Below are positions 1,601 through 45,931 of a DNA stretch of 64,000 bases, in pieces. Both the position numbers and the translations under genes were made by a program. The notes under the pieces were generated by a model. The model saw only the letters and a list, made by a program, of their open reading frames with translations, searched no databases and was not told where the DNA came from. The stretch's first letter is position 1; each line of letters begins with the position of its first letter. The DNA lies in assembly GCA_050250875.1 (NCBI GenBank), contig JBFWNV010000001.1, positions 1,619,891 through 1,683,890 on the forward strand, in the 5' to 3' direction. The stretch is from Vicinamibacterales bacterium. GTDB lineage: Bacteria; Acidobacteriota; Vicinamibacteria; Vicinamibacterales; UBA2999.

Positions 1601-2848
1601 CGGCGGCGCGCAGACGCCGCGGGCGATCAGGTCGGCGATCTCGGCCGCGGCGTAGCCGGCCTCGCGCAGTATCTCCGGCCCGTGCGCGCCCAGCGCCGGG
1701 GGTGGCGAGAGGGCACTCGCCGGCGTCGCCGAGAACTCCAACGGCGGCCGCGGCACGGCCACGGTGCCGGCGTGTCCGGACAGCGCGACGTCCTCGAGCA
1801 GTCCTTGCGCTCGCACCTGGGGGTCTTCGAGCACCTGCAGGGCGTTCTGGATCGGCGCCGCCGGCACCTGGTGCTCGTCGAAGACCGCCTTCCAATGCGC
1901 GGTCGGTCGCTGTCCGAGTACCGCCAGGATCGCCAGTTCGAGCTCGGCCCGGTTCTGAACCCGGAGAACGTTGGTGGCATAGCGGGGCGCGGCGGCCCAC
2001 TCCGGATGCCCCAGCGCCGTGGCGAAGCGCTTGAAGATCCGGTCGTTGGAGACGCCGATCATCAGCGGCCCATCCTCGGCTTCGAACGCCCCGTACGGAT
2101 AGAACGAGGCGCCGCTGGCCCCGAACGACGGGTAGCGGCTGCCCTGAGGCACGGGGTTGGCGCCGGTGAACTGGGCACCGAGCAGATTGTGGAACATCAG
2201 CATCACGCCGGCCTCGAGCAGCGAGGTCCTGACCAGCTGGCCGCGGCCGGAACGGGCACGCTCGGCCAGCGCCGCCAGCACGCCGACGACGATCCACAGC
2301 CCGGCGCTGCCGTCAATGATCGGCACCCCGCTGCGCACCGGCGCCGAGTCGGGCCCGACACCGGTCACGCTCATGATGCCGCTGCGACCCTGCAGCAGCG
2401 CTTCGTAGCCCGGCCGCGCTGCGTCGGGACCGCGGGTTCCGAACGCCGACAGCGACGCATGGATCAGGCCGGGATTGTCGGCACGCAACGTCGCCTCGTC
2501 GAGCCCGAGCGCTGCCAGCTTGTCGCCGCGCATGTTCTCGACGATGACGTCGCAGTTGCGGGCCAGCCGCCGCACCACCTCGCGGCCGTCCGGGGTGGTG
2601 ATATCGACGGCAATCGATCGCTTGCCGCGGTTCAGGGGCACGAACGCCGAGCCCCACTCGCCGAGGTGCGGCCCCATGTGGCGCGAATCGTCACCGCCGT
2701 CGATGCGCTCGATCTTGATGACGTCGGCGCCGAGATATCCGAGCACCAGTGCCGCCATCGGCCCGGCGATGATGGTGCTTAGATCGAGTACCCGCAGGCC
2801 GGCAAGCGGCGCGGCGGCAGACGACGTCGGGTCGCGTTCGGTAGGCAT
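1574..2848 (-). CDS. Family III CoA-transferase (CaiB/BaiF type)
   Basis: Track ORF, 424 aa. LAGLRVLDLSTIIAGPMAALVLGYLGADVIKIERIDGGDDSR is the characteristic N-terminal signature of CaiB/BaiF CoA-transferases. Confidence 0.9.
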   Translation of the reverse strand: MPTERDPTSSAAAPLAGLRVLDLSTIIAGPMAALVLGYLGADVIKIERIDGGDDSRHMGPHLGEWGSAFVPLNRGKRSIAVDITTPDGREVVRRLARNCDVIVENMRGDKLAALGLDEATLRADNPGLIHASLSAFGTRGPDAARPGYEALLQGRSGIMSVTGVGPDSAPVRSGVPIIDGSAGLWIVVGVLAALAERARSGRGQLVRTSLLEAGVMLMFHNLLGAQFTGANPVPQGSRYPSFGASGASFYPYGAFEAEDGPLMIGVSNDRIFKRFATALGHPEWAAAPRYATNVLRVQNRAELELAILAVLGQRPTAHWKAVFDEHQVPAAPIQNALQVLEDPQVRAQGLLEDVALSGHAGTVAVPRPPLEFSATPASALSPPPALGAHGPEILREAGYAAAEIADLIARGVCAPPSAAVVDQD

Positions 2849-2887
2849 TCGCTGGTGATCGGCATTAGATTGCAGCCCATCGCGGCC

Positions 2888-2927
2888 TGTAAAATTGCAT
2901 GTTCAAATCACAGCATTCCGGCATCGC
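2888..2927 (+). repeat. AT-rich conserved motif, copy 1 (left arm of a 40-nt inverted pair)
   Basis: TGTAAAATTGCATGTTCAAATCACAGCATTCCGGCATCGC. By hand alignment, 32 of 40 positions are identical to the reverse complement of 2966-3005. It lies in the divergent intergenic region between the CoA-transferase and the ABC operon. Confidence 0.6.
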
Positions 2928-2965
2928 AATCAATCGCCACCGAGACAAACCGGCACCACGACTTC

Positions 2966-3005
2966 GCGAAGCCGGAATACTGCGATTCCAACTTTCGATT
3001 TTACA
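2966..3005 (-). repeat. AT-rich conserved motif, copy 2 (right arm of inverted pair)
   Basis: The minus strand reads TGTAAAATCGAAAGTTGGAATCGCAGTATTCCGGCTTCGC. A 38-nt spacer (2928-2965) separates it from copy 1. Confidence 0.6.
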
Positions 3006-3165
3006 AACCGGGGACGCGGCTTGTACCCTCCGGATTACCTGCCGTCGCGGCCGCACGGTGGCCAGCGTCTGCGCGCATCGGTCGAGGAATGGACGATCGT
3101 CGGCGACACGTCGCCCGGGCCGGCCGACGCGTTCTAGCCGCGGCCGCATCGACGGGACGACCGAT

Positions 3166-3975
3166 ATGAGTGCCCACGCAATCATGGCGTTCAGTGGCGT
3201 CGGGAAGTCGTTCGCGACGAAGACCGGCGAGATAGTCGCGACCCGAGACATCACGGTGGCGATTGACGAGGGCGAGATCATCGCCATCGTCGGCCCCTCG
3301 GGCTGTGGCAAAACGACGTTGCTCAACCTGGTCGCCGGGCTTATGCTGCCGAGCACCGGGACGGTCTTCTATCGCGGCGAGCGCGTCGACGCGATCAACG
3401 GCCGGACCGGCTACATGACGCAGAGCGATCACCTGCTGCCGTGGCGCGATGTCGCTAGCAACATCGGCGTGCCCATGGAGATTCGCGGCGTGCCGGCGGC
3501 GGAACGCAGCCGGCGGGTCGCCGAGCTGGTCGAGCTCGTCGGCCTGTCTGGCTTCGAACGCAGCTATCCGGCGGCGCTCTCCGGCGGGATGCGCAAGCGC
3601 ACCGCGCTCGCCCGCCTGCTCGCCTACGATCCCGAGACGCTGCTCCTCGACGAGCCCTTCGCCGCCCTCGACGCCCAGCTGCGCTTGCGCATGCAGACCG
3701 AGCTCGTCGGGCTCAGCCGTCGGCTCAACAAGACGGTGCTGTTCGTCACCCACGACCTCGACGAGGCGGTGGCCGTCGGCGATCGGTGCCTGGTGTTTTC
3801 GGCGCGTCCGGGAACGATCCTGCACGACGTGCCGATCCCGCTGCCGCGCGACCGCGACATGCTCGCCCTGCGGTCCGACGCCGACTATCGGCTGCTCTGC
3901 GGGCGGCTGTGGGAGCACCTGGCCCCGGCGCTCGGCGCGGCCGATGGCGCCGGTCGCCGGCCGAAACGGCCATGA
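3166..3975 (+). CDS. ABC transporter ATP-binding protein (NitT/TauT nitrate/sulfonate/taurine type)
   Basis: Track ORF 2899..3975 trimmed to Met90 (ATG 3166), because the upstream part is Arg-rich and crosses the intergenic repeats. Motifs present: Walker A GPSGCGKTT, signature LSGGMRKR and Walker B LLLDEPF. Confidence 0.9.
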   Translation: MSAHAIMAFSGVGKSFATKTGEIVATRDITVAIDEGEIIAIVGPSGCGKTTLLNLVAGLMLPSTGTVFYRGERVDAINGRTGYMTQSDHLLPWRDVASNIGVPMEIRGVPAAERSRRVAELVELVGLSGFERSYPAALSGGMRKRTALARLLAYDPETLLLDEPFAALDAQLRLRMQTELVGLSRRLNKTVLFVTHDLDEAVAVGDRCLVFSARPGTILHDVPIPLPRDRDMLALRSDADYRLLCGRLWEHLAPALGAADGAGRRPKRP

Positions 3976-42712: not shown

Positions 42713-43033
42713 TCAGTCGTCGTCGAATTCGAAGGCCACCGTCACCCGCGCGCCCTCTTCCTTCACGCCGCGGACGCGCCTGGGCACGGGCAGGAAGCCC
42801 GACCCGTCCTTGCTGCGCCAGAGGCTCGTGCTCCAGGCCACGCCGTCGAGTTCGGCGCGGATGGGCGTGCGACCCCAGGCCCGGGTGATCGGCGGCGCCA
42901 GCCGCTGGGGCACCTGCACGTAAGTCCAGCCGCCTTTGCCGGGGATGCGGGCCAGAACGGCGCGGAACGGGCCGCGCCGGATTGACGCTCGGGGCACGTT
43001 CGAAGCGTGGACTTGCGCCGACGTGCGGCGCAA
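42713..43033 (-). CDS. DUF1905-family protein
   Basis: Track ORF, 106 aa. FRAVLARIPGKGGWTYVQVPQRLA...VTVAFEFDDD fits the small DUF1905 beta-barrel family. It lies 15 nt downstream of yceI on the same strand. The start codon is uncertain. Confidence 0.6.
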   Translation of the reverse strand: MRRTSAQVHASNVPRASIRRGPFRAVLARIPGKGGWTYVQVPQRLAPPITRAWGRTPIRAELDGVAWSTSLWRSKDGSGFLPVPRRVRGVKEEGARVTVAFEFDDD

Positions 43034-43048: not shown

Positions 43049-43594
43049 CTAGGCCACCCTGGTCGCGGCCTGACGCACCGCCTCGACCTCGATCTCGAGC
43101 GTCACGGTGTCGCCGACCATCACGCCGCCGGTCTCGAGCACCTGGTTCCAGCCCAGGCCGAACGCCTTGCGGTCGAGGGTGGTCCGCGCCGAGAACGCCG
43201 CGCGCTGGTTGCCCCACGGGTCCTTCACCGTGCCGAGCGACTCGACGTCGAGGGCGATCTCGCGGCTGATGCCCTTGAGCGTCAGCTGGCCGACCAGGCG
43301 GTAGTCGTCGCCGCGCTTCTCGATCCCCGAGCTCTTGAAGGTGGCGTCGGGGAACTGCGCCACGTCGAAGAAGTCGGCCGACTTGAGGTGCGTGTCGCGG
43401 TCGGCGACGCCGGTTTCGATGCTCGAGGTGTCGATGGTCGCTTCGACGGTGGCCTGGCTGAAGTCGCCGTCGGGGACGACCACGGCGCCGCTCCACCGGC
43501 CGAACTGGCCGCGCACCTTGGCGATGACGAGGTGGCGCACCGAGAAGTGGATGCCGGAGTGGCTGCTGTCGATTTCCCAACGCTGCGTGGCCAT
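43049..43594 (-). CDS. YceI-like polyisoprenoid-binding protein
   Basis: Track ORF 43049..43663 trimmed to Met24 (ATG 43594, with AGGAG 9 nt upstream). MATQRWEIDSSHSGIHFSVRHLVIAKVRGQFGRWSG is the YceI-family signature. Confidence 0.9.
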   Translation of the reverse strand: MATQRWEIDSSHSGIHFSVRHLVIAKVRGQFGRWSGAVVVPDGDFSQATVEATIDTSSIETGVADRDTHLKSADFFDVAQFPDATFKSSGIEKRGDDYRLVGQLTLKGISREIALDVESLGTVKDPWGNQRAAFSARTTLDRKAFGLGWNQVLETGGVMVGDTVTLEIEVEAVRQAATRVA

Positions 43595-43646
43595 GTCTGT
43601 AAGCTCCTGAATGAGTTGTCCGACTGTCGAGCGATACTCACAACAG

Positions 43647-43662
43647 AGCAACAGTCGTGCCA
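43647..43662 (-). promoter_or_regulatory. Sigma-54 (-24/-12) promoter for yceI-DUF1905
   Basis: The minus strand reads TGGCACGACTGTTGCT, matching the consensus TGGCACG-N4-TTGCW at every conserved position. It lies about 50 nt upstream of the yceI ATG, in the divergent region shared with a sigma-54 activator gene. Confidence 0.7.
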
Positions 43663-43757
43663 TAACGTCTGATGTTGAAAATCAACAACTTGGTGGCGAT
43701 ATCAGTCAAAATGACAATCGAAATGATAATCTAGACTCTCACAATGAGAGTTTTCCC

Positions 43758-45389
<1,632 letters not shown>

Positions 45390-45445
45390 CGGCTGGCGGC
45401 CAGGACGCCTTGACCAGGCGATTGCCACTCTGCTCTAGTGACGCG

Positions 45446-45931
45446 GTGTCCGGCCGCCTGCGGATCGACGTCGTGGTCAACGGCACGGCGCGCGCCGGCG
45501 AGGTCGAACCCCGGCTCCTGCTGAGCGACTTCCTGCGCCAGGACCTCGGCCTCACCGGCACGCACGTCGGCTGCGAGCACGGCGTCTGCGGCGCGTGCAC
45601 GGTGCTGGTGGACGACCAGCCGGTGCGAGCCTGCCTGATGTTCGCCGTGCAGGCCGACGGCACCAGGGTGACCACCGTCGAAGCGCTCGCCGCGCCGGAC
45701 GACGGCGCGCTCAATCCGCTGCAGGCGGCGTTTCGCGACGCGCATGCCCTGCAGTGCGGCTTCTGCACGCCCGGCATCCTGATGAGCATGACGGCGTTCC
45801 TGCGCGAACAGCCGGCGCCGTCCGAGGCGGCGATCCGCGAGGCGCTCTCCGGTCACCTGTGCCGCTGCACCGGCTACGCCAACATCGTCCGCGCGGTCGC
45901 CCACGCCGCCCATGACGCGCGTCCTCGGTAG
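45446..45931 (+). CDS. Molybdenum hydroxylase small subunit, [2Fe-2S] (CoxS-like)
   Basis: This is track ORF 45410..45931; I prefer the in-frame GTG at 45446 (MSGRLRIDVVVNG...). The cluster motifs are CEHGVCGACTV, CGFCTPG and CRCTGY. Confidence 0.88.
   Translation: MSGRLRIDVVVNGTARAGEVEPRLLLSDFLRQDLGLTGTHVGCEHGVCGACTVLVDDQPVRACLMFAVQADGTRVTTVEALAAPDDGALNPLQAAFRDAHALQCGFCTPGILMSMTAFLREQPAPSEAAIREALSGHLCRCTGYANIVRAVAHAAHDARPR

Follow-up and report, generated by a model that had tools for sequence, protein, structure and literature searches.

A predicted sigma-54-dependent switch pairing a XylR/DmpR-family activator with a divergent yceI gene in Acidobacteriota

We analyzed the intergenic region that separates yceI, which encodes a YceI-family protein, from a divergently oriented gene for an enhancer-binding protein of the XylR/DmpR family. 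Both genes lie in a 64,000-nt stretch (hereafter, the window) of the 5.9-Mb assembly of a soil Vicinamibacterales bacterium (Acidobacteriota). The spacer between them measures 163 nt and has a G+C content of 43%, versus 72% genome-wide, in agreement with the AT-rich divergent region of about 160 nt described in an earlier annotation made from the DNA alone (the sequence-only reading). The yceI product matches the YceI domain over its full length (PF04264, E value of 2e-49, profile positions 1 to 150 of 150). Its match to the E. coli-type model NF002994 begins at profile position 29 of 191, past the signal-peptide region of the model, and the protein is therefore probably cytoplasmic. On the other side of the spacer, the activator combines XylR_N (PF06505, 1.9e-32), V4R (PF02830, 8.4e-11), Sigma54_activat (PF00158, 1.2e-71), and HTH_8 (PF02954, 1.1e-14) domains together with an AAA-lid, which bears out its earlier assignment to the XylR/DmpR type. 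Its translation contains the GAFTGA motif (ELFGHAKGAFTGA), a Walker A motif (GESGVGKE), and a Walker B-like motif (LLLDEIGE). The genome encodes about 25 enhancer-binding proteins. The features of the locus are compiled in Table 1.

Table 1. Genes and predicted control elements of the yceI/activator locus. Coordinates are those of the window; positions are relative to the yceI transcription start predicted near 43636. UAS, upstream activating sequence; IHF, integration host factor.
Feature	Sequence	Coordinates	Strand	Position	Description
XylR/DmpR-family enhancer-binding protein gene		43758..45389	+		543 aa; XylR_N-V4R, AAA+, Fis-type helix-turn-helix (HTH)
UAS-A	ACTCTCACAATGAGAGT	43735..43751	.	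about -107	palindrome with 7-bp arms, core TCTCA-N3-TGAGA, center 43743
UAS-B	AATCGAAATGATA	43716..43728	.	about -86	imperfect palindrome, center 43722
Third site	AGTCAAAATGACA (listed earlier as GTCAAAATGAC)	43704..43716	.	-74	TGTCAAWTAGA-like
IHF-like site	AATCAACAACTTG	43680..43692	+	about -50 (center)	13/13 match to WATCAANNNNTTR
Predicted sigma-54 (-24/-12) promoter of yceI	TGGCACGACTGTTGCT	43647..43662	-	-26 to -11	GG 43661-43660, GC 43649-43648
Leader inverted repeat	GCTCGACAGTCGGAC (yceI sense)	43618..43632	-	about +5 to +19	
Shine-Dalgarno sequence of yceI	AGGAG	43604..43608	-		9-nt gap to ATG
yceI		43049..43594	-	about +43 (ATG)	181 aa; ATG at 43594-43592; YceI-family protein
DUF1905 gene		42713..43033	-		PF08922, E value of 3.8e-15; 15 nt past the yceI TAG stop

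We then examined the promoter of yceI. On the minus strand, the element at 43662-43647 matches the sigma-54 consensus TGGCACG-N4-TTGCW at 16 of 16 positions, exactly as the sequence-only reading had stated, and its 3' end lies 53 nt from the yceI ATG, where a distance of about 50 nt had been given; the AGGAG motif (43608-43604) also stands 9 nt upstream of the ATG as described, and GGAG-type motifs occupy the same place ahead of yceI in relatives (alignment A1). No exact match to the consensus arose in 100 dinucleotide shuffles of the window, whereas motifs with at most one mismatch are expected by chance 0.53 times per 64-kb window, so that only the exact match, taken together with its context, is informative. 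Across both strands of the genome, the full pattern occurs twice, and one of the two occurrences is the yceI promoter. The genome also carries a full-length rpoN gene, whose presence had been left to be checked; its product of 478 aa has a Sigma54_DBD domain (E value of 4.6e-65), a region I-like N terminus, and an RpoN box. Taking C43648 as the -12 position and applying the usual rule of 11 to 12 nt past the -12 GC, we predict that yceI transcription starts near 43636, with a leader of ∼42 nt.

Related genomes, and a set with a single genome for each species, were searched with the sensor domain of the activator (residues 1 to 240). An orthologous activator gene with a divergent yceI was found in at least 11 loci, which comprise the window and genomes from the same genus (five), another genus of the family (one, G021), other Acidobacteriota families (three, G188, G344, and G367), and the Myxococcota (one "Deltaproteobacteria" metagenome-assembled genome [MAG], L014). 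The YceI orthologues of the 10 other loci have 47 to 82% identity, and in one further genome (G215) yceI is located 1.3 kb from the activator gene. The yceI-linked regulators cluster on a maximum-likelihood tree of the sensor domain (two label changes suffice), to a degree not reached in any of 500 label shuffles. Alignment of the spacers revealed five conserved blocks, corresponding to the promoter, the bending site, two activator sites, and a leader repeat, within AT-rich sequence that otherwise drifts. In the promoter block, GG-N10-GC is kept in 11/11 yceI-linked loci (the window plus 10) while the spacer bases vary, and the relatives follow the pattern GGC-N-(C/T)-N5-(T/A)TGC(T), for example, TGGCATTTCTGTTGCT, GGGCACGTCAGTTGCT, TGGCCCGGCCGATGCT, and TGGCAGCGCTCTTGCC. 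The central proposal of the sequence-only reading, a sigma-54 promoter for yceI on which the divergent XylR/DmpR-type activator would act via sites in the AT-rich spacer, is thus supported both by its conservation at 10 further orthologous loci and by the rpoN gene of the genome.

Upstream of the promoter, we predict two main activator sites, UAS-A and UAS-B, both palindromes of the type T(A/C)TCA-N3-TGA(G/T)A. The palindrome of UAS-A, the core of which reads TCTCACAATGAGA in the window (43737-43749), is kept in all loci and ends 7 nt ahead of the activator ATG. UAS-B is the best conserved of the activator sites, with TATCA-N3-YGA nearly invariant in the 11 loci; it had escaped the earlier reading because its palindrome is imperfect. 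From start to start, the two sites are separated by 21 bp in all loci but one (10/11) and by 22 bp in that one. From the center of UAS-B to the first G of the -24 GG, the distance is 60 to 62 bp in 9/11 loci and 70 to 72 bp in the remaining two. As these two classes differ by one helical turn, the helical phase is kept, which would be expected of an enhancer facing the polymerase across a protein-induced bend.

Three palindromes with 3-nt centers had been listed previously, at 43673-43687, 43705-43715, and 43736-43750, as candidate activator sites or as IHF/autoregulatory sites. All three were found, with arms of 6 bp for the first and 4 bp for the second, and the third grows to 7-bp arms at 43735-43751. 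The 163 nt contain two palindromes with arms of at least 6 bp and a 3-nt center, versus 0.036 expected from shuffles (P of about 0.001). The roles suggested for them fared unevenly. The palindrome at 43736-43750 is conserved everywhere and would be the distal activator site (UAS-A). The one at 43705-43715 is confined to the genus, in which G003, G004, and G005 keep the corresponding third site and G001 keeps part of it. The third site ranks 7th genome-wide with the site matrix described below. It may serve the activator as an additional binding site, or its ATGACA (TTGACA in relatives) may be the -35 region of a promoter for the activator gene itself. The sequence at 43673-43687 forms a palindrome in the window only, as the left arm is not conserved, and we rejected it as an activator site. 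It overlaps the IHF-consensus site, and we propose to reread it as the conserved IHF-like core (its right half) and the A-tract (its center).

This IHF-like site, AATCAACAACTTG, lies between the activator sites and the promoter and is preceded, on the correct side, by an A-rich tract. In yceI sense it corresponds to the block TAAGTnnTTGAT, which forms invariant columns in alignment A1, and related forms of the site were seen in L092 and L095. The genome contains four genes of the HU/IHF family (PF00216); one of them scores over the NCBIfam cut-off for IHF-beta (117.4 versus 115), and a second one has IHF models as its best matches, below the cut-off. IHF-type bending at AATCAACAACTTG is therefore plausible.

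The distribution of the activator sites in the genome was evaluated with a strict scan and with a matrix built from 23 aligned sites, among which were the window's own. UAS-B obtained the top score genome-wide with this matrix, which includes the window's sites, and 3 of the 7 best single matches in the genome are found in a 45-bp stretch at the yceI locus. The single pair of sites located 19 to 23 bp apart in the genome is at this locus, and TCTCA-N3-TGAGA occurs once in the genome under the strict scan, again at this locus. Neither the strict nor the matrix scan found a second regulon member in the genome. Because the sole TCTCA-N3-TGAGA and the sole site pair of the genome are both found here, the switch looks dedicated to one promoter, with yceI as its single target.

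We considered the alternative that the promoter is real but that the palindromes are operators of another regulator (for example, a repressor) or serve mainly for autoregulation of the activator, the enhancer being elsewhere. The proximity of UAS-A to the activator ATG means that it overlaps the promoter or leader of that gene, and a further conserved inverted repeat is found downstream of the yceI promoter (43618-43632). However, a different regulator clade brings a different type of site, whereas a different target gene does not. Clade members with non-yceI targets carry the same type of site in the same place, TATCAAAGTGATA and TCTCGAATTGATA in L013 and TCTCAAAATGATA and TCTCAAGATGAAA in L015, whereas a sister clade of Acidobacteriota regulators (∼53% sensor identity), with a different small target gene, has repeats of the CTTCA...TGAAG type. 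That the site type follows the regulator clade and not the target gene suggests that the palindromes belong to the activator. In addition, the fixed, helically phased spacing to the -24 element is as for an enhancer and unlike that of an operator of the divergent gene, and no further block beyond the IHF and activator sites is conserved upstream in alignment A1. We consider this alternative very unlikely in either of its forms, although autoregulation as such is probable: UAS-A ends so close to the activator gene that the latter is probably autoregulated via the same sites.

The leader repeat itself could act as a stabilizing 5' RNA hairpin or as a DNA operator. In relatives it reads GCYCGA-N3-TCGRGC; both arms have changed at 3 of the 6 pairs, and 89.6% of cells are paired versus 19 to 40% when the partner is slid. 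The window's copy is weakened by one mismatch and one G-U pair. A strong leader RNA hairpin in the window was rejected, as this weakened copy is absent from the minimum-energy fold (z-score of 0).

Another possibility is that the real job of the activator is to control the molybdenum-hydroxylase operon located past its gene (45410 onward), its effect on yceI being incidental or secondary. XylR-family activators usually run catabolic operons, and coxS-like and coxL-like genes (confirmed with Pfam) begin ∼20 nt past the activator stop codon, coxS being found behind the activator in 4/7 close loci. A GG-N10-GC-like element also follows the stop codon (45394-45409). This element, however, is absent in G003 and G005, and in G002 insertions part it from coxS; it was rejected since it is not conserved, and a sigma-70-like motif is kept instead. 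The four coxS-linked loci share TTGACC-N18-TCTAGT-N6-GTG, which in the window places TTGACC at 45410-45415, TCTAGT at 45434-45439, and GTG at 45446 ahead of the coxS-like gene, and which is also present in G002, G003, and G005. This motif resembles a sigma-70-type promoter for a leaderless message beginning with the GTG, in which case the TTG at 45410, taken as a start by the open reading frame (ORF) finder, would be part of the -35 element. Given that the sigma-54-like element is not conserved and that a sigma-70-like promoter is shared instead, we do not think that the activator drives the hydroxylase operon. Moreover, coxS is missing beside the activator in G001, G004, and G021 and in the tested full-length orthologues L012 to L017, the genome has no second pair of activator sites, and the enhancer with its fixed geometry faces yceI. 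Taken together, these observations leave us with very little belief in a primary role at the hydroxylase operon. As a separate observation, a repetitive extragenic palindromic (REP)-like, GC-rich element (GTAGGGCGG(A/C)GCTTCAGCTCCGCC) is inserted between the activator stop codon and coxS in two sister genomes (L003 and L006), and not in the window.

Finally, that the sigma-54 match is a product of chance or a vestige and that yceI is run by a housekeeping sigma factor is barely credible: one-mismatch motifs do arise by chance at ∼0.5 per 64 kb, but the match is exact, its GG and GC are kept in 11 loci down to ∼57% activator identity while the neighboring bases drift, its position fits those of the IHF and activator sites, and a consensus scan found no sigma-70-like promoter in the spacer.

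We then analyzed the sensor of the activator. Structures are available for the effector domains of PoxR, DmpR, and MopR, and the sensor matches these domains with E values of 6e-32 to 8e-28, about a third of the residues being identical by eye. The putative zinc ligands C139-x22-E162-x2-C165-x7-C173 align with those of DmpR, MopR, and PoxR. For the pocket, we used the list of DmpR residues given in PMC7264223: H91 and W118 align with His100 and Trp128 of DmpR, which flank the hydroxyl of phenol, and this His marks the phenol-responsive members, XylR having a Tyr (PMC7264223). The four zinc ligands, H91, and W118 are invariant in the yceI-linked clade, and the sister clade has Leu or Ile in place of the Trp. 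Because the His/Trp pair is kept and yet other pocket positions differ, the effector is probably a hydroxylated aromatic compound other than simple phenol. In the same region, C160, which is kept in the yceI-linked clade, replaces Phe170 of DmpR. Together with C166, it adds two cysteines that flank the zinc site (IYCLEERCCG), which raises the question of a thiol-based role, e.g., a reaction with quinones.

Outside the window, the genome encodes a paralogous XylR_N-type activator (L009, G000:C1:1703400-1705038) with 41% sensor identity, ∼40 kb from the activator studied here. The other full-consensus sigma-54 promoter of the genome, TGGCACGGCCATTGCT, is on the plus strand at C1:1696500, ∼7 kb from this paralog and also outside the window.

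We consider it quite probable that the 163-nt spacer constitutes a complete sigma-54 control region for yceI that works as follows. In the mechanism that we infer from the DNA (binding, bending, transcription start, inducer, autoregulation, and DUF1905 cotranscription alike), the divergently encoded activator would bind as dimers at the palindromes centered at -107 and -86, two helical turns apart. Once its V4R sensor had bound an effector, which is probably quinol-like or an aromatic compound with a hydroxyl group, the protein would form an active AAA+ oligomer. An IHF-type protein would bend the DNA at AATCAACAACTTG, about position -50, allowing the oligomer to reach the sigma-54 RNA polymerase, which would wait in a closed complex on TGGCAC-N5-TTGCT. 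ATP hydrolysis would lead to opening of the promoter, and yceI would be transcribed from about 43636 with its leader of ∼42 nt, probably along with DUF1905.

Several points weigh against this proposal or parts of it. The top ranks obtained with the site matrix are partly circular because the window's own sites are in the matrix. For the activator gene, a consensus scan found no sigma-70 promoter, and the candidates identified by eye, ATGACA-N17-GACTCT and TGnTAATCT, are weak and not consistently conserved. The IHF assignment is a consensus match, with one subunit-like gene over the curated cut-off. In the sensor, the pocket equivalents of Y90, F93, V113, and F122 are either unlike those of DmpR or variable among clade members, and since residues other than the His/Trp pair behave in this way, the class of the effector is a guess. 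Lastly, the compared genomes are all MAGs, and the lineage is uncultured.

The sequence-only reading had placed yceI and the DUF1905 gene under one promoter. Both genes are indeed there, 15 nt apart, and they are probably cotranscribed in the window genome, but DUF1905 is not a conserved member of the unit. It follows yceI in only 2/7 close loci, the window and G001 (where the gap is ∼200 nt), and we therefore rejected it as a conserved regulon member and regard it as an accessory passenger outside the core unit. Downstream of yceI, other loci have convergent genes for a flavin adenine dinucleotide (FAD) monooxygenase, a spermidine-synthase-like protein, and a DUF3179 protein, as assigned by reading the sequences. 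In G021, yceI is followed by a gene for a two-domain VOC/glyoxalase protein (confirmed with Pfam), and another locus has an ORF without a Pfam match at this place.

Relatives of the activator face other genes. In L015 (Polyangium sp. y55x31, 2439-3827), an orthologous activator with 61% identity faces a pirin gene with a quercetinase C-domain, which is followed by a gene for an FMN_red/WrbA-like flavoprotein; the palindromes are of the same type, and the promoter reads TGGCCC-N6-TGCA. A relative from the Nitrospiraceae faces cytochrome c3 and FAD flavoprotein genes. In the sister clade (L096 to L108 and L118, from the Acidobacteriota family f48 and its neighbors), the very AT-rich spacer contains the repeats CCTTCATCCTTCGGACTGAAGG and TTCATCTTGATGG and a promoter, TGGCnCGAAnCnTGC, upstream of a small ORF whose product begins with hydrophobic residues; this would make another one-gene regulon that is as yet undescribed.

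The YceI family binds polyisoprenoids, and one solved structure holds ubiquinone-8 (PMC8981238). Together with the pirin/quercetinase, WrbA-like, VOC, and flavoprotein neighbors found in relatives, this binding of isoprenoids and ubiquinone-8 points loosely to quinone or phenolic-lipid chemistry. One may thus imagine a circuit for sensing and sequestration, in which the activator, whose sensor keeps the His/Trp pair, would detect a hydrophobic compound of the phenolic or quinol type (for example, an isoprenoid quinol or a phenolic lipid made by plants or microbes) and induce a cytoplasmic YceI carrier that binds the same compound. We view this extension as tentative and, on balance, unlikely. 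If it is true, the inducer would tell us which ligand cytoplasmic YceI proteins bind physiologically, a question of long standing.

A one-gene regulon under a ligand-sensing activator offers an experimental handle, as the inducer of the promoter would be a strong candidate for the YceI ligand. YceI proteins are widespread, and their reported regulation is a general stress induction, by osmotic or acid stress for YceI homologues (PMC3417382). The locus could also supply a small sigma-54 part of acidobacterial origin, which would probably be tightly silent when uninduced and which fits two activator sites, an IHF site, and a promoter into 163 bp. To our knowledge, few promoters from Acidobacteriota have been characterized. 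A full-text literature search, which covered top-ranked results and was not exhaustive, found no report that ties YceI to sigma-54 or to a XylR-type activator (of the two papers with both YceI and sigma-54, one shows no link and the other looks unrelated, and YceI was not mentioned in the 25 top-ranked of 1,196 papers in a broader search), consistent with the statement of the sequence-only reading that this pairing was not one it knew.

The closest known systems are XylR with the Pu and Ps/Pr promoters of the TOL plasmid and DmpR with Po in Pseudomonas, whose regulators have the same order of domains, XylR_N-V4R, AAA+ with GAFTGA, and a Fis-type HTH. As in these systems, the regulator gene diverges from its target, the upstream sites are palindromic, and an IHF site, predicted in our case, separates the enhancer from the -24/-12 promoter; at Ps/Pr the enhancer sites overlap XylR's own control region, as they would at the yceI locus. 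The putative zinc site and the His/Trp pair are shared with DmpR. Unlike in XylR/DmpR systems, the switch would serve one gene, that of a small YceI binding protein, and not an aromatic catabolic operon, as yceI alone is the conserved target. Control of such an operon is customary in the family but does not formally define it. In addition, the activator sites have a sequence of their own, T(A/C)TCA-N3-TGA(G/T)A, several pocket positions differ, and the host belongs to the Acidobacteriota. The predicted enhancer is also compact, as its sites are centered at -107 and -86 and the whole spacer measures 163 nt, whereas the sites of DmpR are described ∼100 to 200 bp upstream (PMC7264223).

Among the phenol-responsive regulators MobR, MopR, and PoxR (PDB entries 5KBE and 5FRU; NCBIfam NF041906), MobR is the best full-length match of the activator (384 bits over residues 7 to 536). 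The His that marks phenol-responsive members is kept as in this group, but the score of 384 compares with a cut-off of 999, which argues for an orthologous group separate from MobR, and no phenol hydroxylase genes are found nearby. Judged by architecture and motifs, the activator is a member of the XylR/DmpR family and the orthologue of no named member. On the target side, YceI has the full-length PF04264 domain in common with E. coli YceI, Thermus TT1927b, Helicobacter HP1286, and the X158 domain of Saccharophagus. It differs from the E. coli-type YceI model by the lack of a signal-peptide region, and the gene has an apparently dedicated, ligand-sensing sigma-54 activator, of which we found no report for any YceI gene. 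The system is a real and ordinary sigma-54/XylR-family switch of textbook design. Its novelty is the target gene, every other element being standard for switches of the XylR/DmpR family.

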